64,000 bases of DNA from Candidatus Thalassarchaeum sp. (GCA_016777225.1 JADHRW010000002.1:1284-65283), one strand, 5' to 3'; shown: positions 29,714-63,874, numbered from the stretch's first letter. Numbers and translations are program-made. Notes: generated from the sequence alone by a model not told the origin.

Positions 29714-30559
29714 ATGAGTACAACTCGATTATCAAATATTAGCCTAAGAACGAATGCCATAGTAGCCGGAGCCACTATGCTTGCACTAATGCTGGTGCAA
29801 ACAGTAAGTGCAGGAACAGTAAATCCAGCGGCACAAGATTATAGTAATTTAGAAATGTTAACCTTCTTTACTTTCTTCGTTGGTTACATTGCAATGGGTG
29901 CTGCGTTTGTATTCTTCATTGTTGAGAGAAATAATGTTGCTCCACAATTTAGAACAACTATGACAATCTCTGCATTGATTGTAGGTATTGCTGCTATGCA
30001 CTACTACTACATGAGAGGAGTTTACATCGAACACGATGTTGTAAGTATTCAATACAGATACATGGACTGGATTATTACAGTCCCACTAATGGCTCTAAAA
30101 TTCCCAAGTCTAGTAGGTAAAGATGCTATCACTGATTCAAAAGTTGCAGGCTTAGGATTCACTGGAATTTGTTTCTTAGGTGCTCTAATAATGATCGGGT
30201 TCGGATATGCAGGAGAAGCTGGCTTAATGGATGGAATGATTGCATTAGTTCTTGGAGGAATGGGATGGGCTATGATTATCGTAGCAACCGGAACTCCATG
30301 GACAGAAGGCAAAGGAGTAGATAACAGTAAAATCGCTCCTGAGTTGATGTGGTCAACAAACGCTCTAAGATGGTTTATTGTAGTAGGATGGATTATTTAC
30401 CCAATCGGTTACTTATTCAGCCCAGAGGTTGCTATCCTAGATAATGTAAATCAAGAAACAATGGCTGTTCTTTACAACATTGCTGACATGATTAACAAGA
30501 TCGGTTTCGGTGTTGTTGCATGGATGGGTGCTAAGAAAGCAACCGAAATGATGGCTTAA
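29714..30559 (+). CDS. Proteorhodopsin-family microbial rhodopsin (light-driven pump type)
   Basis: Seven hydrophobic segments. Helix C RYMDWIITVPLMALKF. Helix G LYNIADMINKIGFG with retinal Lys (K262) and counterion Asp (D258). PR-type MHYYYMRGVY and WIIYPIGY. Confidence 0.9.
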   Translation: MSTTRLSNISLRTNAIVAGATMLALMLVQTVSAGTVNPAAQDYSNLEMLTFFTFFVGYIAMGAAFVFFIVERNNVAPQFRTTMTISALIVGIAAMHYYYMRGVYIEHDVVSIQYRYMDWIITVPLMALKFPSLVGKDAITDSKVAGLGFTGICFLGALIMIGFGYAGEAGLMDGMIALVLGGMGWAMIIVATGTPWTEGKGVDNSKIAPELMWSTNALRWFIVVGWIIYPIGYLFSPEVAILDNVNQETMAVLYNIADMINKIGFGVVAWMGAKKATEMMA

Positions 30560-36726: not shown

Positions 36727-37968
36727 ATGAACGCCCCATCCGCACCTACGATTGTTATGGCAAATGAGTACGTTGCAAGAGACCCGCGTACTGGTAAGGT
36801 AATTCAAAAGAGGGAAAAATCAGTAGAACACGACATCAGATCTCTTGAACCAATAGATGGAGCATGGCGAAGAATACCTGTTTATGAAATTCTAAAATTA
36901 GCTAGTGGAGATATTGAATATTTACAATTATCCCTAACTAATGGTGGAGGGTTTGTAAATAGAATTGATGGGATAAAAGCATTAAGCAGAGTTTATGAAA
37001 ATTTAATACCTAAAGCTCATGAAATTTTACTTGAAGTATTAGACGATGATTTAGCAGAAATAAGAATTGCAGGTTTAGAAGTCATGCCTAGTTTTTCCCT
37101 AAAACTACATACAGATCTAATGATTTATCTATCTGATAGGCTAAAAGATACTGAAATTGATGTGAGATTAACAGCAATGCAAGCACTTCAAAAGATGTCT
37201 CCTATTTTTCCTTCGGGCTGTGAAGATATTTTGAGAAGAGAATTAAGACATGAAGATAAAGTGCATCGAAAAAGTGCCTTTGAGGCACTAAAACTGACGA
37301 GTGTGGCATGGCCTGAAGCTGGGTGCTTGCATTTGGATGAACTGATAAGAGAGGAAGAAGTTGATTTGAGGAGAAGAGGGTCGAAAATTTTACGTAATAT
37401 TGCCGCTAAAGGTGGGCCTACGGGATGGGACCTGATTGGATGGTCATTAGATGACGAAGATGTGCAAGTAAGAAGAAACGCCTCACAATGCTTAGTTACA
37501 CTAACTAATTCAGAACCAAGGATTGCTTTGATACTTGTGGAACATGCATTGAATGATGAAGATACAACTGTACGTAATTCTGTTATTCGCGCTATGAAGA
37601 AATTAGATATGCAAAGTCCGAGAGTAACGGATATGATACTACGTGGAGCAAGATCTAGAGACCTGAATCTTAGAAATGCTTGCATTAGTCAACTATCTAT
37701 CATTTTAACAGGAGATCGGTTAAGAGAAAGTGCAGCCGAATTACTTCGTCAAGAAACTGATCCAAAACTTCGAAAACGACTTGCTGCTCTATCGGTTGAC
37801 CTTGAGTTGGATGGCACGGAAACTGAGAAAAATAGATTCTTAGCACCTGTTGATAAAGTCGATGATGATGATGATATGGATTTCACATTACCAATTAGGC
37901 CGGATAAGCCGAAGGGTGAACATGATAAACAGAAGGCAAGTCGGTCAAAACCTGAGGACTTACGATGA
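36727..37968 (+). CDS. HEAT/PBS-lyase-like repeat protein
   Basis: Repeated D(E/A)D..VR..A...L units (DTEIDVRLTAMQAL, DEDVQVRRNASQCL, DEDTTVRNSVIRAM, SRDLNLRNACISQL) and a basic/acidic C-terminal tail. Confidence 0.7.
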   Translation: MNAPSAPTIVMANEYVARDPRTGKVIQKREKSVEHDIRSLEPIDGAWRRIPVYEILKLASGDIEYLQLSLTNGGGFVNRIDGIKALSRVYENLIPKAHEILLEVLDDDLAEIRIAGLEVMPSFSLKLHTDLMIYLSDRLKDTEIDVRLTAMQALQKMSPIFPSGCEDILRRELRHEDKVHRKSAFEALKLTSVAWPEAGCLHLDELIREEEVDLRRRGSKILRNIAAKGGPTGWDLIGWSLDDEDVQVRRNASQCLVTLTNSEPRIALILVEHALNDEDTTVRNSVIRAMKKLDMQSPRVTDMILRGARSRDLNLRNACISQLSIILTGDRLRESAAELLRQETDPKLRKRLAALSVDLELDGTETEKNRFLAPVDKVDDDDDMDFTLPIRPDKPKGEHDKQKASRSKPEDLR

Positions 37969-40790: not shown

Positions 40791-43187
40791 ATGACGAAGG
40801 CGGGCGGTCTCGTGGTATTTCTTGTCAGTATATTTATGTTAGCACCAATAATGCCAATTATTCAAGCAGATACTGTTATCTCATCCGAATCTGTAGAACT
40901 ATTATCTGCAGGAGATTTTGATGACCCAAATCAATGGGAGATAACCAGTACCTCTGGATTTAGTAATAATCCTGCAGATTATACTCTTGGTATGGTCGCA
41001 GATAATGAATTATCTTTTACTCATGAAAGACCTAGTAATTTTCTGACACAGACTGCTTGGGCTAGTAATAGCCCAACAAGTTCGAATTACAGTCTGGGAG
41101 AACCCGATACATATTACAGCTGGTCAAAAGGTCCAGATATTACATTAGGAGGATTTGATTATACTGGACTATACGATAAAGAGATTGAGAATGTTTCTTT
41201 ATTGTTATATTTCGAAATCCCTAACGCACTATATCAAGATACAGTCAGAGTAATATTAGAGAATACTGGTTCGGATAAATTGGTCAGAGAGTTTGCCCAT
41301 ACATCCTCAGGGGTCTTTCGAATGAATAATCCTTTAGTAATAAATATGGATGAACTAGTAGATTGGGATTGGAATAAAATTGTAAACTCACAATTTACAA
41401 TCGATTATGTGTCGCAAGGCACAAATGATGATTCAGAAGTAAGGTTAGACGCCCTTGGCATTCGAGTTAAGTACCATATGCCATGGTACTCTTTTGAGAA
41501 TATTAAAGCAAATCATGAATGGAATATTGAGAATTTACCTGTTATTGACATCTCACCATATGATGGGGAGACTAATGGACTAATAATTGAGTCATGTGGC
41601 CTGATACCTGATGAGTCAGAGCAATCTTACTGGACTTTTGATGTAGATGTGCCATTTGGTCAAGAATTAGGGAGAATACATGTATATTCCACAGGTAACT
41701 ATACAATAGGCGTAATTCCAGATAACTTAGATGGCGAATATTCACCAAAACAGTCAGGAGATTTATTAGATAATCCAAGTGTGAAACAACATGTAAGAAT
41801 TGATGTCGAAGATGGTTGTTTAGAAGCAGTAAGGATTGATGTTAATGATCCACAACTAATAGTAAATGGTAGAATTACAGGTTCAATTGAAGGTCTTTCA
41901 AGTACAAGTAATCTTAAATTTGCAATAGGTGAATACATTGTAGAAACTATTCCAATAGATACAGGATACTTCTCATTCAGTGTTCCAATCGGACATGCAT
42001 TTCCATTAGATAATACTGAGACAAGTGTAGGAATAGCATCTAGATTTCAATGGTCATCGGATGGAAGTGCTGAAACTACCATCACTCATATCGATTCGAT
42101 GACAATTAGTGGAGGATACGATTTAGAGTATGATTATTCTCCAAATTGTCAAAATATTGCAAATTTGGAAATGACTGAGGATGAGGGTGGATTTCTAGTA
42201 TCTTTACCGTGTCAAGATGATATGACTGAAAGAGAAAATTTAGTAGTAATAGTAGCTAGTTCTAATGAATCTATAATTTCTGCTAGTTCAATATATAGCT
42301 CTGAACAAAATCTCAATTTCATCCAATTACAAACAATTACAGATGCATCTGGAGAGTGCAAAGTAACTGTCAATGTTTATGATGATAGTGGGAGCCAAGA
42401 AAATGTCTGGACAGGAATATTCACAGTAACTGTAAGTCCAGTTTTAGATAAACCAATTATAGATGATTTACCGATTATTGTTTACATGGATTTAGGAGAC
42501 ACGCTAGTTGTTCCAATGGATATATATGATTCAGACTCCAGTGACTTTGAGATAACAACTAGTAAATCATGGGCAACAGTAGATGAGGATAATAACTTAA
42601 TATTAAAACCAGTAGATTCTGGGCTTCATTCAATTGTTATTACAGTAAATGACAGTGCAAGTGAGGTTTCAGAGAGCTTGAAAGTTGATGTATCTGCAAA
42701 ATCAGATTTGTTAGTTGAATCTGTATCTGTAAGAAAGAATGGAGCAGAGATATCCGATGCCAACGACGGAGATATTGTAGAGATTTTTGCCTATATTAGG
42801 AATGAGGGGAGAGGTGTTGCAAATGGCATAGATGTTAGATGCTATGTCAACGAAGTACTGATAGATACCAAGAAAGTAGATATATTACAGCCAGGTGCTT
42901 TAATTAGTGCCGTATGTGATACCGCATTATCAGGTAACGATCAAGAAAATATAATTAGAATCATAGTAGATAGTACACTCTCAATAGAGGAATCAAATGA
43001 AGATAATAATCAAGAAGAAATTGTAATATTCATCTCATCACCTAATACAGGAATCTCTGATGATTCAGAAAATATCAATAAAGAACCGATTATAATGGCT
43101 CTATCAGTTGCAGTAATATTAGTTGCAATCGCTGTTTTGCAGTTGAGTCCAAGCCGAATCAGAAAACCATTCAATAAGAGAAAGTAA
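40791..43187 (+). CDS. Large surface protein with CARDB-like domain and C-terminal TM anchor
   Basis: 798 aa with signal (LVVFLVSIFMLAPIMPIIQA). CARDB-like block DLLVESVSVRKNGAEISDANDGDIVEIFAYIRNEGRGVANGIDVRCYVN. C-terminal TM IIMALSVAVILVAIAVL followed by a basic end. Confidence 0.75.
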   Translation: MTKAGGLVVFLVSIFMLAPIMPIIQADTVISSESVELLSAGDFDDPNQWEITSTSGFSNNPADYTLGMVADNELSFTHERPSNFLTQTAWASNSPTSSNYSLGEPDTYYSWSKGPDITLGGFDYTGLYDKEIENVSLLLYFEIPNALYQDTVRVILENTGSDKLVREFAHTSSGVFRMNNPLVINMDELVDWDWNKIVNSQFTIDYVSQGTNDDSEVRLDALGIRVKYHMPWYSFENIKANHEWNIENLPVIDISPYDGETNGLIIESCGLIPDESEQSYWTFDVDVPFGQELGRIHVYSTGNYTIGVIPDNLDGEYSPKQSGDLLDNPSVKQHVRIDVEDGCLEAVRIDVNDPQLIVNGRITGSIEGLSSTSNLKFAIGEYIVETIPIDTGYFSFSVPIGHAFPLDNTETSVGIASRFQWSSDGSAETTITHIDSMTISGGYDLEYDYSPNCQNIANLEMTEDEGGFLVSLPCQDDMTERENLVVIVASSNESIISASSIYSSEQNLNFIQLQTITDASGECKVTVNVYDDSGSQENVWTGIFTVTVSPVLDKPIIDDLPIIVYMDLGDTLVVPMDIYDSDSSDFEITTSKSWATVDEDNNLILKPVDSGLHSIVITVNDSASEVSESLKVDVSAKSDLLVESVSVRKNGAEISDANDGDIVEIFAYIRNEGRGVANGIDVRCYVNEVLIDTKKVDILQPGALISAVCDTALSGNDQENIIRIIVDSTLSIEESNEDNNQEEIVIFISSPNTGISDDSENINKEPIIMALSVAVILVAIAVLQLSPSRIRKPFNKRK

Positions 43188-44361: not shown

Positions 44362-44928
44362 TTAATCACTCCTCAAACAGTTATCTACTAGAGCGTACAC
44401 TTCATCTGCATTTATATCATCAGCATTAATGATTAGACTATAAGGACTCATGTCATCTAAATCAATATCATAAAGAATTCGATACCTTTCTTTATCATCC
44501 ATTTGTCTTTTTTGTGATAATTGAAGTTGAGTTTCAAAATCACCACCCTCTCTATTTTGAATTCTACGCGCACATTCTTCGGGACTAACATTAACCCAAA
44601 TACGCAGGCAATCTATCTCCATCATGTGGGCCCACCAACCAGATAATCTACTTTCAATAATTTCAGAACCTTTGGTGTCTTGAAGTTCTTTCTTTAGAAT
44701 GGAATCGAGAGAGCGATCTACATCTAAATCTTCTTTACAGAGAACACTAAATTGACCCACAGTTAAGCCTCTACGCTGAGCTTCTGACCGAAATATGTCA
44801 CCTCCATTCAGAGATTTCCAAGAATATTCATCCACAATTCTCCTTACTAATGTGGATGTTCCACTTCCAGGAGGACCACTGACTGTGACTATAACCAAGA
44901 GCTCATCTCCATTCGGTTCTACAAACAT
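44362..44928 (-). CDS. cmk: Cytidylate kinase, archaeal type
   Basis: P-loop VSGPPGSGTST. Sits in the conserved archaeal order DUF106-cmk-cbf5. ATG 44928 overlaps the upstream gene by 26 nt. A TTG at 44898 (giving M-VIVTVSGPPGSG) would remove the overlap and fits family N-termini. Confidence 0.8.
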   Translation of the reverse strand: MFVEPNGDELLVIVTVSGPPGSGTSTLVRRIVDEYSWKSLNGGDIFRSEAQRRGLTVGQFSVLCKEDLDVDRSLDSILKKELQDTKGSEIIESRLSGWWAHMMEIDCLRIWVNVSPEECARRIQNREGGDFETQLQLSQKRQMDDKERYRILYDIDLDDMSPYSLIINADDINADEVYALVDNCLRSD

Positions 44929-45841
44929 CACAGCGCAATTTACCTTGTGCGGTTCTACTAATCATATCAGAATCACAAGAAGGACAAATAGTTCCTTTCT
45001 GAGGGGGGGCTACATGTTGATTACCACCTGTACGTTTTAATGATTCAGAAGATTGGACACCTGTTTTCCTAGGGCCTGCTCTCTTTCTTTGAGTTCTACG
45101 TGTTCTGTTATCTGAATTAGATTTTGATTTTTCTTCTTCAAGAAGATATAGTAAAGGCTCAGGTATCAAATCACCAGAAAGAACCACAGGATGAGTCTTG
45201 TAACGTAAAAGTTTCAGGTGTCTGTCAACAATTCTCCCAAGAGGAGCACTCATTGTGATATATGTGGCAATCCATGCAGGGAATATCCACATGATTTTAT
45301 TTTCAAAGCCCCACATTGGTTGCCAAGGTAGACTAACATAGTCGACTCTAAAATCAAGAACAGTATCTGCCATCCAACTAAATATTCCTATAATGAAAAT
45401 CATAGTAAACATCATTGGTTTCATCATAGCACCTTGCATTGCCATTTGTTCGGGCATCATCTCCATCTGCAATTTCTGCATTTTATCAATCTGAGCAGTG
45501 TCTCTTGACATTCTAGCCTCTCGCATTTGCTGACTAATTTGTTTACTTCTGTGGCTATGATGAGCTTGTTTCAAAGGATCCATAAAAAATGAACGTATTA
45601 CAGTATTTACAATCATTATACTAGAACCCAAGATAAAAACAGTCGGGACGAAGAATTGTTCAAGCCCTAATCGACCAAAAAGAAGAGGTTCTATTACAGT
45701 ACCAGCTCCATCTGATAGCGAATTCCTAAGACCAGGGAATAACATTAAACCCATCATCATAATCATTAGAAAAAGCATCGGCAGCATTGCTGAACCCATG
45801 CCAGCAGGCTGAGCATTACCATCAGCACCGGCATCTACCAT
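44903..45841 (-). CDS. DUF106 / EMC3-TMCO1-like archaeal YidC/Oxa1-type insertase with C-terminal basic tail and Zn ribbon
   Basis: TM1, then a Met/Gln-rich coiled segment QMREARMSRDTAQIDKMQKLQMEMMPEQMAMQGAMMKPMMFTMIFIIGIFSW (the DUF106 hallmark), then 2 more TMs. After that comes KSKSNSDNRTRRTQRKRAGPRKTG... and CPSCDSDMISRTAQGKLRCDVCRTEW. ATG 45841 is preferred over GTG 45874. Confidence 0.75.
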   Translation of the reverse strand: MVDAGADGNAQPAGMGSAMLPMLFLMIMMMGLMLFPGLRNSLSDGAGTVIEPLLFGRLGLEQFFVPTVFILGSSIMIVNTVIRSFFMDPLKQAHHSHRSKQISQQMREARMSRDTAQIDKMQKLQMEMMPEQMAMQGAMMKPMMFTMIFIIGIFSWMADTVLDFRVDYVSLPWQPMWGFENKIMWIFPAWIATYITMSAPLGRIVDRHLKLLRYKTHPVVLSGDLIPEPLLYLLEEEKSKSNSDNRTRRTQRKRAGPRKTGVQSSESLKRTGGNQHVAPPQKGTICPSCDSDMISRTAQGKLRCDVCRTEWR

Positions 45842-45906
45842 GATACGATGGCTTCGGATACATTGAATGAACACTTCGGTAAGCGAACGTCAAGTAAATT
45901 CATAAA

Positions 45907-48519
45907 TTATTTGAATGAATAACCACAAACTACACACGTAGAGGCCCCTATTTCTGAGTCAGACATACAAATTGGACAACTATTTTCAGGTATCTCTTTT
46001 ATCTCAGGCTCTGTAACTATCTCTTCGTTAATTATCTCTTCAGAGTTATCAGTTGAATCAAGAACCTGTTCTATAGATTCTGATTCCTCATCAAGAGGCG
46101 CTACTATGATCTCTTTGATTTCATTAGATTTTTTTGAAAGAGGAAGTGTAATTAAAGGAGTTTCAGGTACTGATTCGGCCCATTCAGGTACATTTGGTTC
46201 CTCGTCAACCTCTTTTCCGAATGTAGCACCGTGGAAATCTTGAGCATCAGATACTTTGTATTCTGCTTCAGTATCTCCTTGAATCTCATAAACTACTTCG
46301 ATTCTTTCATCTTTTTCAATTCGACCTACAAACCAAGTAACTTTATTGCCATCTCTTGCAGATTCTTTAGTGAAGGAAGCATCTTTTTCACCATTGATAT
46401 TAGATTTTACAGAAGAACTCTCGATTGAAAATGTACCAGGGACAATATCGTGTAATGCTAAATCATCCAGAGCACTATCTGACGTATTATGGAACATTAG
46501 TAAGATTTCATATCTTCCAGGTCCGCCGCCAGGAAACACTTCTTTACCAGTACTAATTTGTCGTCTTCGATGCACTACACGGATTACAGGAGGTCTTTCA
46601 ACTGTTCTTGTTGCTACGGGACCGAAACGTTCCATACTAAAGTCTGAACGAATTGGTGCTGCAAGAATTTTATTCTGTGGAGAAGGGTCAGGAGCGTGTA
46701 ATGGATATCGAATAACCATTGTTTTACCAGGCTTAAGTCCTAGTCTAGAAGAGGTCCCAACAGTAATTCTCAAAGCATGCCCCGGATTATCAGGAGAAAT
46801 CATTTTCTCTTCTATTTGATTACCATTTATCACTTCAATACGGTACTGTTCCTCGCTTAAGTCGGCACCCTCTATTTCTACCTGAATATTTTCAAGTTTA
46901 GGTGGAACAAATATTCCGGGTACATCATCAATTATTCTCATGACATTTATTGTTGCAGAACCGGTGTTTTCAATTGTAGTAGTAACTTCTAAATCAGACG
47001 ATATATATGACTTAATTCTGGATATATCAAATCTTTTGAGAATTGTTGCATCAAGAATAGATAGTTGCTGTTCTGAAACTTGTATAGAACCAGAGGATTT
47101 AACCGAAACCCTTGGAAGAATAGAATATCTGACTTCTTGAGTGAAACTAGGTTGATCCTCAGATTCAACTCTTTTTTCCATTGATTCCCAACTTCCTTCA
47201 GGTGGAATATCTTGTCTGAGGTCGGATACATCTAAGATAGGAGATTCACGACCTGCTAATCTAACAGATGCTCCCGCAAGAGATACCACAAAAGAAGATT
47301 TATTTTCGAATACACACTTGCAATGCCATACACCGGGCCTATCATCTTCTTTGGCATTAACATAAGAAAACTGGCGTCCAGAACTTGAGACATTCTCAAA
47401 ATTAATACGTGAAACTGTAGATTCAGCATTATATTTAACAATAGACTTACCAGCAGGTATTTTCTCTACACCATCAATCAAAATCGTAGGTAAGATAACC
47501 AATTTTCTATTTTCTCCAATAGACATCCTTCCGATTTCCCATATAACAGTAGTTTCTTCTATGCTATATTCAGGTGAGCTTGGAATCTCAAAATTTGAAG
47601 GGAAAGAACGTTTGAGAACGACGTCTGTTAAAGAAACTGGAGAAATATTTTCAATGTCGATAGAGAAAAGTACTTCTTGCGCATTTTTTGAGTATACTAA
47701 AGACATACTAGATTCTTGATCTCTCTCTGGTTCAGTATCAATTTTTTCTTTGATTTCTAACATTCTAGGGCCATTTGAATTGTAAGGGATTGTGGTTTCT
47801 TCAGTCGCATCTAATTCACGAACTGTTACAGTTTTACCGCCTAAATCGGTAGCATCAGTATTAGTAAGTTCAATTTCAATATCCCATGCCCGGTGCTTTT
47901 TACTAGGATTTTTTAATATTAGTTCACCCTCTATTGTTTGTTTTATAGAACTACCATCGGGATTAATCAAAGATTCTTCTACTTCACTAAGGATTGCATG
48001 TAATTTGTCACCAGGAATTACATCAACCTCTGAAGATAAGCGCAGATTTGGAGTCTCTGATACTGAAACGGAAGGTGTATTGAATGATTCGAGAGCATCA
48101 GAAAGATTATTCAGGTTAATTTGTTCATCTTTAACAATAGTTTCTTCCATCTCCCAAATCTCAGAATCATTATTACTCGATTGAACAGGATTTGGGGAAT
48201 CTAAAACCTCTAATTTATCAGAAACTATCGATTCACCAGCGGATGAAGTAGTAGATTCAGTCAGACTAGATAATGATGGAAATTCTAAACCAGGAGGTGG
48301 GGGTGGAATAACCAAACCCGGTGGTAATGGCGGAATATTAGAATTAGGAGTTGCTGAAGAACCATTGATTAAATTATCAATTGTGTCTCTAATATCATCT
48401 AAAGAGTCATCAATTTTATCCTTAAGACTATTCTTTTCATCATCCTCAGGAGGTGGTGGTGGTGGTTGAAATTCAAACCCCGGAGGAGGGGGGGGAGGGG
48501 GCGGTAAATTATCAGACAT
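45907..48519 (-). CDS. Uncharacterised 870-aa protein with no signal peptide or TM segment seen by eye: polyproline N-terminus, about 4-5 DUF11/CARDB-like beta-sandwich repeats, C-terminal Zn ribbon
   Basis: N-terminus MSDNLPPPPPPPPGFEFQPPPPPPEDD, also PPLPPGLVIPPPPPGLEF. Repeat-domain signatures ...IENISPVSLTDVVLKRSFPSNFEI...TTVIWEIGRMSIGENRKL, TIENTGSATINVMRIIDDVPG, LMFHNTSDSALDDLALHDIVPGTF...KVTWFVGRIEKDERIEV. C-terminus CPICMSDSEIGASTCVVCGYSF. No hydrophobic segment of TM length seen. Confidence 0.8.
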   Translation of the reverse strand: MSDNLPPPPPPPPGFEFQPPPPPPEDDEKNSLKDKIDDSLDDIRDTIDNLINGSSATPNSNIPPLPPGLVIPPPPPGLEFPSLSSLTESTTSSAGESIVSDKLEVLDSPNPVQSSNNDSEIWEMEETIVKDEQINLNNLSDALESFNTPSVSVSETPNLRLSSEVDVIPGDKLHAILSEVEESLINPDGSSIKQTIEGELILKNPSKKHRAWDIEIELTNTDATDLGGKTVTVRELDATEETTIPYNSNGPRMLEIKEKIDTEPERDQESSMSLVYSKNAQEVLFSIDIENISPVSLTDVVLKRSFPSNFEIPSSPEYSIEETTVIWEIGRMSIGENRKLVILPTILIDGVEKIPAGKSIVKYNAESTVSRINFENVSSSGRQFSYVNAKEDDRPGVWHCKCVFENKSSFVVSLAGASVRLAGRESPILDVSDLRQDIPPEGSWESMEKRVESEDQPSFTQEVRYSILPRVSVKSSGSIQVSEQQLSILDATILKRFDISRIKSYISSDLEVTTTIENTGSATINVMRIIDDVPGIFVPPKLENIQVEIEGADLSEEQYRIEVINGNQIEEKMISPDNPGHALRITVGTSSRLGLKPGKTMVIRYPLHAPDPSPQNKILAAPIRSDFSMERFGPVATRTVERPPVIRVVHRRRQISTGKEVFPGGGPGRYEILLMFHNTSDSALDDLALHDIVPGTFSIESSSVKSNINGEKDASFTKESARDGNKVTWFVGRIEKDERIEVVYEIQGDTEAEYKVSDAQDFHGATFGKEVDEEPNVPEWAESVPETPLITLPLSKKSNEIKEIIVAPLDEESESIEQVLDSTDNSEEIINEEIVTEPEIKEIPENSCPICMSDSEIGASTCVVCGYSFK

Positions 48520-54566: not shown

Positions 54567-55511
54567 TTAGAACAAACGGGAATCGAGAACTCTCAATTCA
54601 CCATCATCATCTTCTTCTTCATCATCATATACTCTGAATCTGCCTGCAATCGCTGCTGCTGCGAGAGCTGTGATCATAGTAGTTCCAATCAACTCAAATC
54701 CAGGCAAGTAAACACCACGGATGTAAAGAGTAACTGATTGTATCTGAGAATTAGGTATTCCTTCAGTCCGGACTGAATAATCAGAAGTTGCTTTGAATTG
54801 CAAATTATAGTATTTATCAGTCCATCCTTGATTCTTAGGAGTGCGGATCTGTACCCTTACTTTCTCTGGTGGAGACTTAGATTCAATCTCAACGTTAACA
54901 AGAGGAAGACTGAGTGTGAAACCTTCATCGCTTAATTCATCATAATTCGCAATTTCGATATTCATTCTGTCTAAAGCATTTCCGTCATTGTAAACATCGT
55001 AAGAAACCATATAGTCAACTTTAGGCCTTAGTTGAATGAATGCTAGTTCTGAAGCAACTCTTAATCTACTAAATTGCTTAACTACTGCCAATACCTTGTA
55101 AGTTGTAGGAGTTCCAGGGTATGCCACTCCATTAGCTTGCGATACAGTAGCAGTGATTGAAATCTGATGTTGACCTTCAGCCATCTGTAAATCTCCTCTC
55201 AAAATTACTTGGAAACTGGTTGATAGACCAGATCCGACAGTCAAAGATGCAGGGCCTGCAGAAACTAATGCACCTGACTGGATAACAATATCAACCTTAA
55301 TCTGGTGAGCGGATGGATTTTCTAAATCACAATTTACTATTGATGTACGTGTTGAACCAGGATATGTCTCAATAGGCTGAGGATTTTCGCAGGTTAGAGA
55401 AACATCTGGAGTAACACCTTGAGCATGTACTGCGGCTGCTCCTGCCCACATACTTAGAAAGTAAACTGCCAGTAATATTAGGACAGGTCTAACTGAGCGG
55501 GCAGATGTCAT
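54567..55511 (-). CDS. Secreted two-domain protein with PGF-like C-terminal anchor and acidic tail
   Basis: Signal peptide (VLILLAVYFLSMWAGAAAVHA). C-terminus LPGFELIGTTMITALAAAAIAGRFRVYDDEEEDDDGELRVLDSRLF. Confidence 0.7.
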   Translation of the reverse strand: MTSARSVRPVLILLAVYFLSMWAGAAAVHAQGVTPDVSLTCENPQPIETYPGSTRTSIVNCDLENPSAHQIKVDIVIQSGALVSAGPASLTVGSGLSTSFQVILRGDLQMAEGQHQISITATVSQANGVAYPGTPTTYKVLAVVKQFSRLRVASELAFIQLRPKVDYMVSYDVYNDGNALDRMNIEIANYDELSDEGFTLSLPLVNVEIESKSPPEKVRVQIRTPKNQGWTDKYYNLQFKATSDYSVRTEGIPNSQIQSVTLYIRGVYLPGFELIGTTMITALAAAAIAGRFRVYDDEEEDDDGELRVLDSRLF

Positions 55512-55964: not shown

Positions 55965-56037
55965 TTAAGTGAAAAAAATTACATTAAGTTACCACTGTAA
56001 CACTTATGTCCTCTATCCTTCCGTATGGAGTTAGAGA

Positions 56038-58746
56038 GTGCATACTATGGCCATGGACGAAAAAATGAATAAAGCAACAATAATGTTAGTAATTGGAATT
56101 ATGTTAGTAGGAGTTAATGCGACAATAGTCACATCAACATTTGATGGATTAATTTCAGAAGGTATGGCAGATAATGTTGCTGCTGCATATGCACAAGATG
56201 AGCTAATTGATGATGATTGGAACGAATCTACTTCTGAAAAAGTATACTTCGGATATAATCTTACAGACATTGATGCATTATCAAGTGAAGACCCTTCCAA
56301 TGCATATACTAAGGTAGGACCATGGATTTACAACGTTACATCTCACAAAGAGCTCTTAGATTGGAATGAAGTTGAAGGAACTATGACATATTCAGAATAT
56401 GAAGTGTTTGAATGGTGTGGAGATTGTACATGGGAAGATAGAGATGGTACCATGGGAGATATTGGAAAAATATACGACTCTGTCCCAGGAACAAATGACT
56501 TCCAAAACGTCAATATCTTGTGGATGGCAGAAAGTATTGGAGCAATTGGACCAGTAGGTTTCGAATATGGAGAACCATTTGCTAAAGCCGGTTTTGCAAC
56601 AAATATGATGGAATTAGAGCTTTCAAGTAAGGCTCCAAGTATATGGTCAGCAGAAGACATTAGCAATAAATTATACGGTGCTGAAGCCGCGACACCGAGT
56701 TATGTAATGACAGAAGCATATGCAGTATGGAATGCTAGCGCAGGAGCAGGAATGATGGAGCCTGATTTTACATCTTCAGCGAATATGATTCTAGAAGATG
56801 CAGTTGACCCGTCAACTGGCATGTGCATTGCACTAACTTGTGACTATGGACCAATGCTAGTAGCTGGAATGGGTGAGCCAAATGAAGTAGTCACACCGAC
56901 CAGAGCTATGTTATACGGATATTCTGATATTTCAGAACCTGAGAGAACTCATATCGATTGGGCTGTATATGCACTGGCAGGTAGCACATTCTTAGCAAAT
57001 GGAGGTGGTGCTGATCTAACTACTACTGATAATAATAGAGAAAGGCTACTAGAAGTTAGTGGAGTAAATATTGCAAATCCTGCGGTTCTAGAATATCTAT
57101 TATTTGGGATAAATGAGGATGGTTTGGCAGAAGGAATAATTCAAGAAACTGACTTCAATGGATTGCCACTAAATGGTAATATTCTTTTCTTATTAGGTGC
57201 ACAGGGCGATGCTTTTAGCACTATGAGTACCTATGGAATAGGATTAACTCAACTTCTTGGATTAGCAGATTGGGCAGGTGCTTGGATTGGTATGCTTGGA
57301 ATTCCTGCTGAATTTCCGATGATACTTACAGGTAGTTCAGGGACAATGAACGCTAATGATTGGTGGATAGCATCGTTCGGCGGAGAAGAACCTCTAGCTG
57401 GCGGATATATCCCTCTAGGATTGAATATGGGGCCTTGGGAAGGACAAATTGATATGTCGAGTGAGGATGTAAGAAATGTACTTTACGATAGTCCATATGC
57501 ATTAGCATCAACTGGTTTTGGAGCCGAATTCATGTATGGAGAAGCAACAGGGAAGACTCTCCCTCAAGGTGCTGATGGTGCCGAAGTAGGAGGAACTGTA
57601 TCTGACTGGAATGATGAATATGTTGCTAATCTATATGGAATAACTGTATTAGAAGCACAATCAGTTAGAAATTATATCGCTAACTTCATGGTAGATGTAG
57701 TTGTACCTACTTTACTAACATTCCAGACTGGAGCAAGTGCTTACACAACTCAAACAGTAGACCAATGGTTGTTTGGTTCTTGTGATCCTGTTTTAGAATT
57801 CCAATTTGGTTCAGTTGCTTGCTATTCAAGTCTAGAAACCAATAAAACGTACTATGGTTCAGTATCAGAAGAATTCCCTAATGGGATATCAACTGGAGAT
57901 TACTCAGCATATGTGATGAGTATTGAAGGAGATACTATTGGTCAAAGATTAATGCAAGGATATGCTAATACAGATGGAGATGGACTGTGTGATTTCGATT
58001 ACTCAGCAAGTGGAGTATATCTGGGAGAAGACATTGAATGTACAGAAGGCCAAGTATATGGAATGACCGAATATCTAACTTGGAGGGCTCCTGCGAAAGA
58101 TGCTGCTAATTACGGACTTATGGAAGAGGCTGTAGGATCAAGTGTTGATTATGCAGTATTAGAGAATTCAATAGGAGCAATAGGTACTGCTGATGAATCA
58201 TTCAAGTATAACCTAGGAGGTTATGCAGTTGCAATGACAGAAGTTGGCGATAATGTAGAATTCAAAGGAATACCTATGGTTGAGCATAGTATCGTACTTG
58301 ATGCAACACAACACAATATTCAATCGAAATTAATTCCAACTAGTTTGTCACCAATTTCAGTGACTCCTGGTGTATTAGGATTATACTTTAATGGAAATGT
58401 TGACTTTAAAGTAGAACCTAATACTAATGCTGTGATGTATGGTCATGGAACATTGCAATTCGTTCTAGATATCAGAGGCTTAGGATATGATAGCCCTGAT
58501 CTAAGCGAGGGAGCAACTGATGCGTATCCTGTTTTTGAAATAGCAATTCATAGTGAAATCGGCGATGAGGATGCAGAAGATGTTAGAGGTGCAACAGATA
58601 GTATAGGAATAATGGGCTTTACAAGCTTAGATGCCCCTATGCCAATTCTCGCATTGAACCTTGTTCAATTGGTCGTTTATGTATTAGGACTTGGAATGTT
58701 GGCATATGGAGGAATGAATATGTCATCAAAGAATGAAGATGAGTAG
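56038..58746 (+). CDS. Two-TM ectodomain protein with CD36/SR-B/LIMP-2-family-like signature blocks (expanded ectodomain)
   Basis: 902-aa ORF (GTG 56038; ATG 56047). N-terminal TM ATIMLVIGIMLVGVNATIV and C-terminal TM ILALNLVQLVVYVLGLGMLAYGG. For the collinear motif matches to CD36-family blocks, see findings. High confidence as a CDS; the family call is moderate. Confidence 0.55.
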   Translation: MHTMAMDEKMNKATIMLVIGIMLVGVNATIVTSTFDGLISEGMADNVAAAYAQDELIDDDWNESTSEKVYFGYNLTDIDALSSEDPSNAYTKVGPWIYNVTSHKELLDWNEVEGTMTYSEYEVFEWCGDCTWEDRDGTMGDIGKIYDSVPGTNDFQNVNILWMAESIGAIGPVGFEYGEPFAKAGFATNMMELELSSKAPSIWSAEDISNKLYGAEAATPSYVMTEAYAVWNASAGAGMMEPDFTSSANMILEDAVDPSTGMCIALTCDYGPMLVAGMGEPNEVVTPTRAMLYGYSDISEPERTHIDWAVYALAGSTFLANGGGADLTTTDNNRERLLEVSGVNIANPAVLEYLLFGINEDGLAEGIIQETDFNGLPLNGNILFLLGAQGDAFSTMSTYGIGLTQLLGLADWAGAWIGMLGIPAEFPMILTGSSGTMNANDWWIASFGGEEPLAGGYIPLGLNMGPWEGQIDMSSEDVRNVLYDSPYALASTGFGAEFMYGEATGKTLPQGADGAEVGGTVSDWNDEYVANLYGITVLEAQSVRNYIANFMVDVVVPTLLTFQTGASAYTTQTVDQWLFGSCDPVLEFQFGSVACYSSLETNKTYYGSVSEEFPNGISTGDYSAYVMSIEGDTIGQRLMQGYANTDGDGLCDFDYSASGVYLGEDIECTEGQVYGMTEYLTWRAPAKDAANYGLMEEAVGSSVDYAVLENSIGAIGTADESFKYNLGGYAVAMTEVGDNVEFKGIPMVEHSIVLDATQHNIQSKLIPTSLSPISVTPGVLGLYFNGNVDFKVEPNTNAVMYGHGTLQFVLDIRGLGYDSPDLSEGATDAYPVFEIAIHSEIGDEDAEDVRGATDSIGIMGFTSLDAPMPILALNLVQLVVYVLGLGMLAYGGMNMSSKNEDE

Positions 58747-58826: not shown

Positions 58827-59897
58827 ATGAGACTGAGGTATATCGATCGTATACGAGCTATTGCTATACTATGTATGGTTCAAGTACATACTGCAGCAAT
58901 AATTCCTCCAGAGGGAATATCTGTTGAACATCCAATCGCATTTATTTCTGCCGCTATAGGAGGAATGGCAGCACCAATGTTTGTCACAATTTCAGGATGG
59001 GGGATATACCGTAGCGCCATCAGAAGAAGTGAATCAGGAAATAATAATATTTTTCCTTGGATTTCATGGATTGTTCCACGTATCACTATACTGACTATTT
59101 GTCAGTTATTAGTTAACTCAGCATTATTTATGGATAGGGGCGGAAGGTTTGATTGGATGACTCCCGGTGTACTGACTTTACTGGCATTAGCATCTCTTAT
59201 AGGTCCAGTAATAGTATATCTAACAAAGAAGCAACGATTTTCTATGATGCTATTGTTTATGATTTCACCAATGATAATTGGAGATCTTAATGGTGTAGAT
59301 CTATATTGGAGTGAAAGAGTATCATCAATTGGAATTGAAGAATGGATAGAGAGACTTCTGTTGAATGGTACTTATCCTGCATTACCTTGGTTAGCATTCA
59401 TATTTTTAGGAAGTTTGATAGATGAAGATAAAGAGAATTTAGACAATCAAAATAAGTTAGTCAAGGCTGGTCTAATCATAATTGCTATCAGTATGATTTA
59501 TTCACTATATGAAAGAATGCCATGGGCTCTTACAGAAGGAAATGCAATACTAACTTTTTTCCCAGCCAACTCCATGTTTATCCTTACTTCAGGTATATTC
59601 GTACTTATCTTATTCCGAATTTTAGAAGGTGGTGAAAAATCAGGAGGTGAACCCTTTGGAGGAGAAAAACTCTCTTGGTTAGAACCTGCAGGGAGATTAT
59701 CTTTAACAATATATGTAGCGCACTTTGTATTGCTGGGGGTTGTAGCATATGAAATGCAAAATCAATCTCGTTTGGAAATCTATACTGCATTTATATTGAC
59801 GATTTTTCATACATCTATATGGATTCCTTTATCTATATGGCATGAAAAATATATCCCTAAACTTTCATTTGAAGAACTTTTGAGTAGACTCAATTAG
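58827..59897 (+). CDS. DUF1624 / heparan-alpha-glucosaminide N-acetyltransferase-like polytopic membrane protein
   Basis: N-terminal RYIDRIRAIAILCMVQVHTAA (the R..siD..R..ai..M...H hallmark). About 9-10 TM segments. Confidence 0.65.
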   Translation: MRLRYIDRIRAIAILCMVQVHTAAIIPPEGISVEHPIAFISAAIGGMAAPMFVTISGWGIYRSAIRRSESGNNNIFPWISWIVPRITILTICQLLVNSALFMDRGGRFDWMTPGVLTLLALASLIGPVIVYLTKKQRFSMMLLFMISPMIIGDLNGVDLYWSERVSSIGIEEWIERLLLNGTYPALPWLAFIFLGSLIDEDKENLDNQNKLVKAGLIIIAISMIYSLYERMPWALTEGNAILTFFPANSMFILTSGIFVLILFRILEGGEKSGGEPFGGEKLSWLEPAGRLSLTIYVAHFVLLGVVAYEMQNQSRLEIYTAFILTIFHTSIWIPLSIWHEKYIPKLSFEELLSRLN

Positions 59898-62800
59898 TCT
59901 TGAAGGTAGTCTGTCGTCCAGCTTATGGGGCCAAACCAGCCTGTATTTTCATGATTTGATGCTTGCATTCTTCCGTAGTATGTAGTCCCCCAAGACAAAC
60001 CGGTTATCATGGTTGAATAATTACCAATAGAACTACTTCCTAAATCCAAACTACTAGCCCAACCAGTAGACTGATTTCCCATATCAATAGTTCCATAATA
60101 GAAAGTTAAAGATGTGTTAGTCCCATTATCATAAGTTTCCCAAGAGATATCTGTCGTACTTGTCGTCTCATCAGAAGATTCTAAATTTCGAATAATTGCA
60201 TCATATACAAAGAAATCACCACGAAGAGAGTCATTATTCCAAACAGGTAAATGATCTAGGGCATCATAAGTTTGCTGGTTTAGAGGGAATCCCCATGCAG
60301 CATGGTAAGGAGCGAGATTGTATCCAGTTGTATTAGAAAGATGCATTACCCAATAGTTGAACTCTTCAACATCACCTATTGGGACCTCATCATTAGGTAG
60401 GGTGTAGTAAAGACTCAAGGTTTCTGTTATTACATCCCAACCCCATTCTTCTTTAATGATTAAGAATGTATCTAGAGCGGTCCAAACTGACCAATTAGAA
60501 ATATTAGAACCATCCTCGAAATATGAACTCATCCTTGATTCTCTTTGTTGAGGATCTACTGCACTGTGGCCCTCGACTCCAACTAAATCTTCCATCAGAT
60601 AAACACTTGCAAAGTTACAACTGGTTTCGGTATTACCGGGTAATGTAGAAGGCATCCATTGATGATTATGACCAAGCTCATGGAACATCCCCCAGTCTCC
60701 ATTCTCACTCATATAAGTATAATTTACTACGTCAGGAACACTTAGATCATGAGCCATGAATGGATAACCAGAATGCATCCAACCAGCAGATATTTGGACA
60801 TCGAAAACTGCTCTTTCGACTCTAGGCCAAGGTTCAAATCCATACAGTTGGTGTTCCATATTGAGAGCAGTATCCCACCAATTCATTAGCTGACTAGGAT
60901 TATCAAGTTCACGTATTTCCGAACTAGGGACTGTCATAATGAAATTATTAGAGACCAACTCAGCCCATGGCGCGGGGTTTTCTTTTTCTGAATAAAGCCA
61001 TTCAAAATCAGAGGTATCGCCCAGTACAAACATCGGTGCACGAATTGCTCCAGAAATGGTCAACTCTAAATCGCCAAATACTGAACCAGCGGGAACTGAT
61101 ACATAGATAGGTCCTCCAAATGAATTCGCAACTTCAGTAGTAGTATTTTCAATCCCCCAATTCCTGTAAATTTTTGAGTGACGTTTGATAATATCTTTCC
61201 CCCATAAACTATCGGTATGAGCACCTATCAATATACTAAAGTCTAATTCAGAAGTTTCTTGATCAACTAAAACAGTAATTACTTCACCAGGAGGGGCATA
61301 TAATCCAGTTGACATCCTTATATTCGAACGGGCTCCAGAATAACCGAAGTCGCTAGGAAGTCCAGATTGATTACCATTGACTGTAACTGTACGACTTATT
61401 CTAGTAGCGTTAGATGATACAATGCCTGGAAATTCCACATGACTAGGATGTACTGGAAGTTCATCAGCAGGAAGATTCTGAGTAAGAGATTCTTCCAATC
61501 GCAATAAGATATCAGAAACTGGATCGGCCCCCAAATCATAACCTATTGAACTCCAAAGTGTACTGTATTCTATTATTGTCCAGCCTGTCGAATTTATCAA
61601 ACTTCTAAGAGGTGTCCAAAAATCGATAAAGTCTAATGGAAGAATTACAGTGCAGTCAGAAATAGATTTATATGCAATATTTGCATCATCATTTGATAAT
61701 TCAATACCATTTATACGAACATCTAAAACTGCTTCTATTGCATTATGTGGTGTATGTAATAGATCAGGTAATTCAAAATTAATATCATTATAACCCCATG
61801 AATTAGATACTAATAGACCAGTAGTTTTAGAAATTTTATTACCAGGATAATTATGTGTGACATCAGAATTAGAATAAGACCAATACCAAGAATGGCCGCC
61901 CATGATTAATCCCCCACCTTCTAATAGAAATTTTTCTATAGCAATATTATCACTATCATCGTGACCATTCCAAAATTCATCAACAAGACAATTGATTTCC
62001 GAAAGATCATCAGGAGTCACTGATAGGTGAACTTCATGTCCAGCAGCCCTCAAATCATTTTCCCAGTCATCAAATCCTGCAGCATAAGATAAACCCACGC
62101 TGGCCGATTCCCCACATGCCCATTCCACTGCTCGAAGTGTGAAATCATGATTTTCATCTACCCAGCTTTCATGACCATACCCTACTATTTTTCCACGGCC
62201 AACATGTCCAGCAGATACAACGGTATTATCTTCAGAATCTCTACCAACAGGAAACGACCATTCGCCAATCGGTAGAATAAGCGACGACCAGCCACCCCAG
62301 TCAGCATCTTCTATACCATACAAAAGTTCATTTTGATCAGATCTTAAATCATGTATAGCGATCCATATATTCAGACCTACAGCTCCACCAGTATTATTAG
62401 CCCAGATAGTATATTCTTTCCAATCAGTTCTAAAGTTAGGAATTCCTTCAATAGTGCCATTATCGAGTAAAGTTAGTCCAGAGGGTAAATCTGGATAAAC
62501 TTCCCAAGAATCTATAGATGGACCATTATTTGTGGCAGGAATCAATACACTATAGTTAGATCTTAATGCATATTCAGACTCTGGCCAAAATATTTCATCA
62601 GGAGGCAGGCTAGTGATACTAATAATTAGTTGAGTCGTGGTGTACCCTCCTGAATTATTAGCCCAAATTTGGTATGTAAAAGAATCTTGAAATTCCATAG
62701 CTATTCCAGAAATAATACCGTTTTCATTATTAAAATTTAGACCTAAAGGGAGACTAGGATAAATTTCCCAGTTTTCTGGTAAACCACCAGACCAAGAAGG

Positions 62801-63874
62801 AATAATATCAAAGATATCTTCATCTATAGTTAAGTCGAGTATGTATGGCTCATAACGTATATTTTCGGGAGCAATATCATTTACTGAAATAAGAATAGTT
62901 GTTGTAATAGAACCACCAGTATTTGTTGCAGTAACATAATGTTCTCTTATTGCATGTAATTCAGAAGGAGTACCCGATATTGAGCCATCATCTAAATCAA
63001 ATATAATCCCTTGAGGTAATGGTGGTTCAATCATCCATTCCATAATTTCGCCACCATCAACACTTGGTATTTCTTCTATTAATTCACCTAACAACCACTG
63101 AAATGGATGGCCGGAATAAAAAAGGTTTTCAGGAGTCTGATGAGTAGAGATTATTCTAAGAGTAGTTGAAACAGAACCGCCAGAATTAGATGCTGTAATG
63201 GTATAATTAGAATCAACTAATTGCTGGATGACGCCAGATATCTCTCCGTTATCTAAAATCTCTAAACCATCGGGTAAATTAGGTACTATTTCCCATCCTT
63301 CAATCTCACCACCAGAAGTCATAGGATTATTTATTCCACAGAATTCATTAAGTGTACAAAAAATCACATTATCCCCATAAATAATCATATTTGGTGGAGC
63401 AGGTAATATCTGTATATCAATAATAAATACACTAGAACCAACTGCATTGGTTGCAATTATTGTAAATCTAGTAGATATTAGTTCTATTTCTGGAGTTCCA
63501 GAAATAACTCCACTTTCAGCATCAATAGTTAGACCCTCTGGTAACCTTGGATTGACTAACCAGTTTTGAGGGCCATCTCCAGTAAAACTAGGCGTTAAGG
63601 TCTGAATTGTATCGCCTACAATCAAAAATAAGGATTCTTCACCGTAATCTAAATTATCAGGAGACGTCATTAATCTACAAGATTCACCAGTAAATATTTG
63701 ATTGAAGAAACAATCTTCTTCTGAAATTTCAATAATTTCACAACTAGGATCGTTGGGTTCTTGTTGGCAATCAATTTCTTCGATACTGGAGTCTTGACTC
63801 CAAGGAAGTGATAAACATCCCGGGGTCAACAGTAATAAAACCAATAGCAAAGCCAATGATTTAGGTGACTCCAT
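59894..63874 (-). CDS. Lipoprotein-type secreted M60-like (enhancin/TCAF-like) zinc metallopeptidase with putative-Ig (He_PIG) repeats and a C-terminal FN3-like domain
   Basis: 1326 aa. Signal plus lipobox-like LLLLTPGC. At least 5 repeats with LP[EDQLS]GL.(I/F)....G.ISG(TP). A central block GRGKIVGYGHESW...GGGLIMGGHSWYW. Zinc motif MFHELGHNHQW (HELGH at 60668-60682). C-terminal TDISWETYDNGTNTSLTFYYG...YYGRMQASN. Confidence 0.85.
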   Translation of the reverse strand: MESPKSLALLLVLLLLTPGCLSLPWSQDSSIEEIDCQQEPNDPSCEIIEISEEDCFFNQIFTGESCRLMTSPDNLDYGEESLFLIVGDTIQTLTPSFTGDGPQNWLVNPRLPEGLTIDAESGVISGTPEIELISTRFTIIATNAVGSSVFIIDIQILPAPPNMIIYGDNVIFCTLNEFCGINNPMTSGGEIEGWEIVPNLPDGLEILDNGEISGVIQQLVDSNYTITASNSGGSVSTTLRIISTHQTPENLFYSGHPFQWLLGELIEEIPSVDGGEIMEWMIEPPLPQGIIFDLDDGSISGTPSELHAIREHYVTATNTGGSITTTILISVNDIAPENIRYEPYILDLTIDEDIFDIIPSWSGGLPENWEIYPSLPLGLNFNNENGIISGIAMEFQDSFTYQIWANNSGGYTTTQLIISITSLPPDEIFWPESEYALRSNYSVLIPATNNGPSIDSWEVYPDLPSGLTLLDNGTIEGIPNFRTDWKEYTIWANNTGGAVGLNIWIAIHDLRSDQNELLYGIEDADWGGWSSLILPIGEWSFPVGRDSEDNTVVSAGHVGRGKIVGYGHESWVDENHDFTLRAVEWACGESASVGLSYAAGFDDWENDLRAAGHEVHLSVTPDDLSEINCLVDEFWNGHDDSDNIAIEKFLLEGGGLIMGGHSWYWSYSNSDVTHNYPGNKISKTTGLLVSNSWGYNDINFELPDLLHTPHNAIEAVLDVRINGIELSNDDANIAYKSISDCTVILPLDFIDFWTPLRSLINSTGWTIIEYSTLWSSIGYDLGADPVSDILLRLEESLTQNLPADELPVHPSHVEFPGIVSSNATRISRTVTVNGNQSGLPSDFGYSGARSNIRMSTGLYAPPGEVITVLVDQETSELDFSILIGAHTDSLWGKDIIKRHSKIYRNWGIENTTTEVANSFGGPIYVSVPAGSVFGDLELTISGAIRAPMFVLGDTSDFEWLYSEKENPAPWAELVSNNFIMTVPSSEIRELDNPSQLMNWWDTALNMEHQLYGFEPWPRVERAVFDVQISAGWMHSGYPFMAHDLSVPDVVNYTYMSENGDWGMFHELGHNHQWMPSTLPGNTETSCNFASVYLMEDLVGVEGHSAVDPQQRESRMSSYFEDGSNISNWSVWTALDTFLIIKEEWGWDVITETLSLYYTLPNDEVPIGDVEEFNYWVMHLSNTTGYNLAPYHAAWGFPLNQQTYDALDHLPVWNNDSLRGDFFVYDAIIRNLESSDETTSTTDISWETYDNGTNTSLTFYYGTIDMGNQSTGWASSLDLGSSSIGNYSTMITGLSWGTTYYGRMQASNHENTGWFGPISWTTDYLQD

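Follow-up and report, generated by a model that had tools for sequence, protein, structure and literature searches.

A conduit model is established for the receptors CD36, SR-BI and LIMP-2, with palmitate lying in the cavity of CD36 and cavities that span LIMP-2 (PMC8972800). In the literature searched, the CD36 family is regarded as eukaryotic, and the prokaryotic relatives discussed are actinobacterial proteins only, recognised by structure alone (PMC8972800): the DUF3068/LmcA/PgfA proteins are periplasmic lipid carriers with the CD36 fold and topology (PMC8972800, PMC9678360), and their family is said to be confined to actinobacteria (PMC9678360). LmcA is an extracytoplasmic, elongated β-barrel with internal cavities, whose likeness to CD36 was recognised in its structure (PMC8972800), and PgfA binds trehalose monomycolate and acts with the MMPL transporter MmpL3 (PMC9678360). 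A 2023 survey of the evolution of the CD36 domain drew on eukaryotes alone, with 165 genomes and transcriptomes (PMC10715195). Here we describe a gene at positions 56038-58746 in a stretch of 64,000 nucleotides (hereafter the window) from Candidatus Thalassarchaeum sp. (GCA_016777225.1, JADHRW010000002.1:1284-65283), a Marine Group II (MGII) archaeon (Poseidoniales, MGIIb). We are close to certain, on homology and architecture jointly, that its product is a true and highly divergent member of the CD36/LIMP-2/SR-BI family (PF01130). A preliminary description of the gene had proposed an archaeal homologue of this family with a near-doubled ectodomain, and the Pfam, profile and structure evidence agree with that proposal.

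The preliminary description had also regarded all characterised members as eukaryotic. This holds for PF01130 itself, but proteins of the same fold have been characterised in actinobacteria, namely DUF3068/LmcA/PgfA (PMC8972800, PMC9678360). Our literature search found no paper on CD36 in MGII, Poseidoniales, Thermoplasmatota, Asgard lineages or prokaryotes in the present sense, nor any that counts CD36 among the 'eukaryotic signature proteins' of Asgard archaea; where 'Asgard' did turn up beside CD36, the word had another, unrelated meaning. The domain is already annotated by automatic means in databases: precomputed Pfam matches are available, and the relative MCH2637922.1 bears the NCBI name 'CD36 family protein [Candidatus Thalassarchaeum sp.]'. 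The novelty lies in recognition and analysis, and not in first detection.

Membership of the CD36 family

The protein has the hairpin topology of CD36, in which a transmembrane (TM) helix at either terminus, with a short tail, encloses one large domain. Kyte-Doolittle hydropathy finds the two terminal hydrophobic segments and no others (Table 1), as had been described, and about 830 residues separate these segments, compared with some 400-430 in animal CD36 proteins. The protein is strongly acidic (D+E 14.4%, K+R 3.1%); this composition, the secreted proteins encoded beside it and the precedent of the known members suggest that the large domain faces outward.

The Pfam search that the preliminary description had recommended places the window protein above the gathering cut-off of PF01130 (26.5 bits), with a score of 30.6 bits (E=1.7e-7) and a best stretch of aa 19-126 on profile positions 2-110. 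As a margin of about 4 bits for a single sequence is small, profile-profile tests were added using hhalign, for which all percentages given here are profile-profile probabilities. Support also came from 32 aligned relatives, all 32 of which match PF01130 on their own (best E=1.9e-10). In a reverse search, a profile built from the 32 MGII proteins alone was run against 1.84 billion representative proteins and returned 176 sequences, those beyond the family itself being true CD36 proteins. Among them was a coral 'lysosome membrane protein 2-like' protein, which matches PF01130 from end to end (E=9e-137).

The matches of this reverse search to CD36 proteins fall into three collinear blocks, in which positions 5-130, ~520-620 and ~770-870 of the MGII profile correspond to CD36 residues ~20-144, 189-280 and 376-500, respectively. 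The N-terminal block aligns with a mixed CD36 alignment at 98.6% (E=1e-15), and its 132-134 columns align with 24 annotated eukaryotic LIMP-2/SR-BI/CD36/SNMP1 sequences at 96.9% (E=2e-10). When the N-terminal block is left out, aa 768-899 (the C-terminal block) align with eukaryotic CD36 at 87.8% (E=3e-6), and residues 566-865, which include neither TM helix, are collinear with the second part of LIMP-2 over 231 columns (E=2e-5). In this last alignment, TQTVDQWLFGSCDPVLE of the MGII protein pairs with TRTVHELLWGYKDELL of LIMP-2, YPVFEIAIHSEIGDEDAED with FPIMYLNESVLVDDESAEKL, EFKGIPMVEH with SVKGIPVYRF, and VEPNTNAVMYG with INPLTGIVVRA. The C-terminal core of the MGII family also aligns with 12 long Asgard-type CD36-domain proteins at 99.5% (E=5e-23, 288 columns), or at 97.1% (E=7e-11) without its TM helix, and the Asgard-type proteins align in turn with eukaryotic CD36 at 100% (E=3e-75). 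All of these probabilities are well above 50%, the level at which the preliminary description had drawn its line.

Despite an overall sequence identity to the animal receptors of only ~12-16%, the invariant G-P-x-x-Y motif, which is common to CD36 proteins, is present in the MGII protein as G94, P95 and Y98. The conserved blocks GPYxY, LLWGY, KGIP, EPxTG and the C-terminal P..W/F.E...D..A are all in register, the forms held in common with the animal receptors being GPxxY, (L/W)L(W/F)G, KGI(P/D), (V/I)EPxTG and P(V/I)...E...D(E/D)xA. The GTDGTxF and PHF motifs of the family are degenerate or absent. Six motif blocks had been listed beforehand and were found at exactly those residues (68-126, 288-301, 573-587, 741-754, 790-812 and 830-848). 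Five of the six proposed pairs do align when profiles are compared; the remaining block, 288-301, whose 'LYGY' had been read as a second LWGY, lies inside the insertion described below, matches nothing in CD36 and was set aside as a chance resemblance.

Other sequence searches were negative. Neither the single protein nor the 32-sequence profile matched any Protein Data Bank (PDB) chain, the CD36-like protein had no match in NCBIfam, and PF11271 (DUF3068/PorA), the family of LmcA and PgfA, was absent from the window protein at E<=10 and from the 32 relatives at E<=0.01.

Structure prediction with AlphaFold2 (AF2) on the shallow 32-sequence alignment gave a predicted local distance difference test score (pLDDT) of 46, and this model was left out of the fold search. 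Thirteen sequences were added to a second alignment, 12 of them more divergent members (30-43% identical) from a second homologue search, and the resulting model has a mean pLDDT of 82.7 and a predicted template modelling score (pTM) of 0.74, with pLDDT values under 50 at the extreme termini only. When this model was compared with the PDB using Foldseek, the 13 best matches were all CD36 (5LGD) or LIMP-2/SCARB2 (4Q4B, 4Q4F, 4F7B, 4TW0, 9FJF and 5UPH), at E=6e-6 to 7e-3 and probability 1.00, over ~340 columns on targets of ~390 residues; the structures that the preliminary description had named for comparison are thus among the best matches. Next came LmcA of Mycobacterium smegmatis (7SHW, 7N3V), at E=0.06-0.2 and probability 0.6-0.87, with nothing meaningful after it, and a viral structure library gave no match (best E=0.36). 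For the predicted model, this amounts to secure fold recognition of a CD36-type barrel rather than to a close superposition.

The opposite view, that the likeness to CD36 is a spurious product of TM helices and composition in an unrelated protein, could draw on the narrow PF01130 margin, gained mainly over aa 19-126 including the first TM helix (TM1), on the empty PDB sequence searches and on the poor first AF2 model. However, the TM-free core still aligns with both eukaryotic and Asgard-type proteins, the reciprocal search recovers the three collinear blocks, both groups have the invariant GPxxY motif, and the independent structure-based search returned only CD36 and LIMP-2 at E<1e-2. Having been tested by Foldseek and by TM-free profile alignments, this alternative is effectively refuted.

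The barrel core and its apex insertion

The additional length of the MGII protein is accounted for by one helical insertion, which is not a duplication. The preliminary description had left the choice between an insertion and a partial internal duplication. The former stands, as a single helical insertion at ~aa 161-565; the latter was ruled out, since the insertion is unlike both core halves. Indeed, in hhalign aa 160-565 reach 2% at most with each half of the core, with eukaryotic CD36 and with the Asgard-type proteins, as do the insertion's own two halves with each other. The N-terminal block stops at an NI(L/P) motif and the C-terminal block picks up just before the WLFG/LLWGY motif, an interval that contains the apex helices in the LIMP-2 structure. 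On these boundaries, the 400-residue segment falls where animal receptors bind their ligands.

In the AF2 model, a globular helical region of the insertion lies between two long helices (170-213 and 537-564), which may be the equivalents of the apex bundle helices. Conservation across the family is equal in the insertion (2.77 bits per column) and in the core (2.76-2.80), and the insertion is therefore a constrained functional domain. Pfam, PDB sequence and Foldseek searches found no known binding module in it, it has no significant fold match in the PDB, and no relative of it was detected beyond the present family. A smaller, lineage-specific β sub-insert at ~aa 611-720 of the C-terminal core carries the Cys651/Cys668 pair. 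The protein lacks the conserved cysteines of the animal receptors and has different pairs of its own, the others being 127/130, 263/268 and 582/595.

Two compact prokaryotic relatives from metagenomes, P0226 and P0240 (522-534 aa), share the two terminal TM helices with the MGII protein but are without the 400-residue insertion. Only ~137 residues separate their core halves, compared with ~448 in the MGII protein. The halves align with the MGII family at 96.1% and 97.2%, with the motifs EWLFGW and DDDAEEF in common, so that the insertion is bracketed independently. When the two were compared with the MGII loci, only the CD36-like gene matched. Both also match PF01130 as well as PF11271 and, judged by their sequences, look like bridges between the eukaryotic CD36 and the actinobacterial LmcA/PgfA families, a link so far reported from structure alone.

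The MGII protein therefore differs from its closest comparators in distinct ways. From LIMP-2/SCARB2, CD36 and SR-BI (4F7B, 4Q4B, 5LGD), with which Pfam, hhalign and Foldseek assign it the same hairpin topology and barrel core, it is set apart by its archaeal host, its very acidic composition, the helical apex domain of ~400 aa and the β sub-insert. The Asgard-type proteins (P0357, P0258, P0365, P0368 and P0354) are likewise archaeal, long (~810-960 aa) and matched by PF01130, and they too have a large insertion at a similar place, after position ~144-160 of the CD36 profile; however, it is not detectably related to that of MGII (2%), they are much closer to eukaryotic CD36, and they retain the GTDGTQF and PHFL motifs that MGII has lost. 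Their assignment to Asgard archaea rests on the names of two metagenome-assembled genomes (MAGs) at NCBI (P0258 and P0357, Promethearchaeota), one of which is on a contig of 3.9 kb. The P0357 gene lies at L081:1-2437 and that of P0365 at L082:6001-8562, the latter on a gene-dense contig of 430 kb beside an isolated L16/L10e-type ribosomal protein gene. Finally, LmcA/PgfA (MSMEG_0317, Rv0227c; 7N3V, 7SHW) are prokaryotic and membrane-anchored like the MGII protein, and LmcA forms the second-best, if weak, group of structural matches; LmcA is without an apex helix bundle, whereas the MGII apex is hugely expanded. By analogy, LmcA/PgfA are a plausible functional counterpart, as lipid carriers between the membrane and the outer layers.

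Distribution of the gene and its surroundings

A first homologue search returned 332 proteins. Among the best 120, most are of ~900 aa, those with names come from MAGs of MGII/Thalassarchaeaceae, and nearly all have a precomputed PF01130 match. When a single genome from each GTDB species was scanned, at least 254 stretches proved to encode a relative; the best 80, from which all neighbourhood counts are taken, have identities of 38-89% and bear without exception the label Poseidoniales, Thalassarchaeaceae or MGII, or that of generic Euryarchaeota/Thermoplasmatota MAGs. The CD36-like gene is conserved across Poseidoniales/MGII, where the preliminary description had suggested looking for it.

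Table 1. Features of the CD36-like gene, its product and the conserved neighbours (positions are those of the window; residues are those of the protein).
Feature	Residues	Position	Strand	Basis
CD36-family gene, 902-aa open reading frame (ORF) from GTG		56038..58746	+	PF01130 above gathering score
N-terminal TM helix, preceded by a 12-residue tail	~13-34	56074..56139	+	Hydropathy; AF2 helix 8-52; hhalign with CD36 TM1
N-terminal CD36 core part, β-strands with GPxxY	~61-160	56218..56517	+	Pfam; hhalign; AF2 strands 63-158
Inserted all-helical domain (~400 aa) at the position of the animal apex helices	~161-565	56518..57732	+	AF2; hhalign
C-terminal CD36 core part, with WLFG, KGIP, VEPxT and PVFEI...DEDAE blocks	~566-860	57733..58617	+	hhalign
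C-terminal TM helix (TM2), followed by a 13-residue tail	~864-889	58627..58704	+	Hydropathy; AF2 helix 870-901; aligns with LIMP-2 TM2
Predicted TM1 and helical extension	8-52			AF2
Predicted β-strands, N-terminal part of barrel	63-158			AF2
Predicted almost purely helical segment, pLDDT mostly 85-95	162-565			AF2
Predicted β-strands, remainder of barrel	569-860			AF2
Predicted helix	843-853			AF2
Predicted TM2	870 onwards			AF2
Polytopic membrane acyltransferase (Acyl_transf_3 / HGSNAT_cat), downstream		58827..59897	+	Pfam; same strand in 67/80 loci
Secreted M60-like (enhancin-type) metallopeptidase, 1326 aa, with Ig-like He_PIG domains, convergent		59894..63874	-	Pfam; 60/80 loci
Uncharacterised protein, 314 aa, hydrophobic segment near each end, divergent		54567..55511	-	59/80 loci
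Uncharacterised membrane-anchored protein, 420 aa		53223..54485	-	54/80 loci

The protein identical to the ORF product in public gene calls has 899 aa. An in-frame ATG at 56047, three codons past the GTG, yields this length (MAMDEK...) and is therefore probably the true start. No support was found for two antisense ORFs inside the gene (56031-56300 and 56343-56666).

Gene order and orientation are uniform across the 80 loci, many of the misses being contig ends, and the contents of the neighbours imply that the locus encodes cell-surface and secreted proteins (Table 1). The two uncharacterised products, divergent from the CD36-like gene, belong to no Pfam family and are candidate partners. The HGSNAT_cat domain of the acyltransferase is the catalytic domain of a lysosomal-membrane acetyltransferase and here stands beside a homologue of the lysosomal LIMP-2, a pairing found in 67 of the 80 loci; this is probably a coincidence, as the Acyl_transf_3 superfamily is widespread.

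Two forms of the locus occur in MGII, the compact form of the window and an expanded one. The expanded form carries upstream a 522-aa uncharacterised protein and a TctA-like permease. On its downstream side, ahead of the acyltransferase, it has two more genes, one for a pyrimidine-nucleoside phosphorylase and one for a secreted Lamin-tail-domain/PLD-like(x2)(/PhoX) enzyme of 1065-1526 aa. It was seen in many MGII lineages (for example at L016:10714-15185, L017:10873-16730 and L016:4693-7926). These additional genes could serve the scavenging of phospholipid or of extracellular nucleic acid and phosphate. The upstream genes of the expanded loci, of 522 and 551 aa, were considered as CD36 paralogues and rejected, one being without a significant Pfam match and the other TctA-like.

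Elsewhere in the window, the β-oxidation-type enzymes to which the preliminary description had drawn attention are both present, as a 3-hydroxyacyl-CoA dehydrogenase (11029-11877, -) and an acyl-CoA dehydrogenase (18286-19584, -). Between them lies a gene for a 2065-aa subtilase-domain protein (11916-18113, -). Two large MMPL/sterol-sensing-domain (SSD) membrane proteins, Patched-like members of the resistance-nodulation-division (RND) type, are encoded at 22456-25617 (-) and 33502-36060 (+). In lysosomes, LIMP-2 works alongside the SSD protein NPC1. A bacteriorhodopsin-family gene (29714-30559, +; PF01036, E=3e-34) is expected of photoheterotrophic MGII. Giant putative surface proteins abound in the window, where several ORFs of 798-1646 aa at 2570-7510 (-), 7725-10979 (-), 40791-43187 (+) and 45907-48519 (-) have no Pfam match or just adhesin-type repeats (TSP3_bac, CARDB, DUF11). 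An EMC3/TMCO1-like (Oxa1-superfamily) membrane protein (44903-45874, -) and a HEAT-repeat protein (36727-37968, +) belong to families better known from eukaryotes.

Proposed function, origin and meaning

The best explanation of the protein as a whole, to which we assign a probability of roughly 0.6, is that of a divergent CD36-family member with a lipid-transfer barrel and an enlarged apex. The helix at each end would anchor the protein in the cytoplasmic membrane, with the CD36 β-barrel core, split between aa 61-160 and aa 566-860, held between them. The enlarged apex domain would hold a partner or a lipid source, and hydrophobic molecules would pass passively through the barrel between that partner or source and the outer face of the membrane. 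The direction favoured is inward, that is, the scavenging of fatty acids or other lipids, because the host is a heterotroph with β-oxidation enzymes and the apex is seemingly built to dock an external partner. By analogy with the known members and with PgfA/LmcA, we lean towards a lipid conduit working in either direction; uptake as such is a tentative proposal that we rate as less likely than not.

Several observations speak against this explanation. The near-invariant cysteine columns of eukaryotic members (C318, C324 and C335 of P0367) align to gaps in the MGII protein, and the canonical, short three-helix ligand-binding apex is replaced by the ~400-residue multi-helix domain. Global superposition on the animal structures is poor (TM-score of 0.35-0.38 normalised to the target, root-mean-square deviation of 9-10 Å), although the low TM-score is due in part to the 400-aa insertion. 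There is no lipid-catabolic enzyme among the conserved neighbours in the 80 loci, and the β-oxidation genes of the window lie 37-45 kb from the CD36-like gene, outside the conserved block. Furthermore, tunnels of the CD36 type are bidirectional in principle and do not by themselves fix the direction of transfer.

Two other functions have to be weighed against a scavenging conduit. The protein might instead be a carrier of envelope biogenesis, by which lipids or lipid-linked glycans made by the cell itself are brought from the membrane out to its surface or the S-layer, as proposed for LmcA/PgfA with MmpL3. The sole characterised prokaryotic proteins of this fold and topology do traffic envelope lipid or lipoglycan (PMC8972800, PMC9678360). 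LmcA is the next structural match after CD36 and LIMP-2, but its Foldseek support is weak, and the family match is to PF01130 and not to PF11271/PorA. MMPL-type genes are present in the window, yet at a distance of 20-30 kb and without synteny. Nearly all of the order has the CD36-like gene, as would be expected of a housekeeping envelope gene, and its conserved neighbours are surface-related, with membrane-anchored proteins and a member of Acyl_transf_3, whose usual substrates for acylation are extracytoplasmic glycans. Against this, no lipoglycan pathway is known in MGII, and the large conserved apex suggests docking to an external partner. We consider an envelope carrier unlikely.

Still less likely, in our view, is an adhesin or receptor without transport, in which the barrel would be a rigid stalk for a 400-aa head, and this head would attach to particles, to vesicles, to a secreted enzyme or to the surface of algae or other cells. 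The apex of the animal proteins is a site of ligand and protein docking (CD36-PfEMP1, 5LGD; LIMP-2-GCase, 9FJF), where LIMP-2 binds glucocerebrosidase (GCase), and it is this part that is hugely elaborated and strongly conserved in MGII, beside genes for large secreted hydrolases (M60 in the window, LTD-PLD-PhoX in other lineages). However, the conservation of the barrel core equals that of the head, which goes beyond the needs of a passive stalk; adhesins tend to differ from one lineage to the next, unlike this conserved head; and the searches of the head described above yielded no known binding module.

With respect to origin, it appears highly improbable that the gene was recently taken up by horizontal transfer from a eukaryotic CD36, such as that of phytoplankton or a protist, instead of being an old archaeal lineage. 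PF01130 is overwhelmingly eukaryotic, and MGII archaea are described as living among phytoplankton. The family, however, is found throughout Poseidoniales at 38-50% identity and with conserved synteny, a distribution from which it follows that it predates the diversification of at least Thalassarchaeaceae. The matches between MGII and eukaryotes (E of ~1e-6 to 1e-10) are far weaker than those of the Asgard-type proteins (E=3e-75), MGII is closer to other prokaryotic forms (E=5e-23, E=4e-11), and the G+C content of the gene (0.38-0.40) is the same as that of the remainder of the window.

A broader proposal, which we rate as somewhat unlikely, is that the CD36 fold was invented long ago by archaea rather than by eukaryotes, and that MGII has a separate lineage of it whose 400-residue helical head docks external lipid sources, such as membrane vesicles or the surfaces of algae or particles, and feeds lipids along the barrel into the cell. 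If true, the archaea that are most abundant at the ocean surface would scavenge lipids by direct contact, and the animal scavenger receptors would have a prokaryotic ancestor, with near-eukaryotic versions in Asgard archaea and a separate, deeply diverged lineage in MGII.

The supposedly eukaryotic CD36 family is thus also present in archaea, and the origin of the scavenger receptors and LIMP-2 becomes a testable phylogenetic question of relevance to eukaryogenesis. The pairing of a CD36-like protein with SSD/RND proteins in an archaeon may be a parallel to PgfA-MmpL3 and LIMP-2-NPC1. The MGII protein also offers a natural experiment on the CD36 apex, in which the ligand-binding part has grown into a conserved domain of 400 residues. 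For the uncultured MGII, which are predicted degraders of lipid and protein, it is a concrete candidate for the acquisition of hydrophobic substrates.

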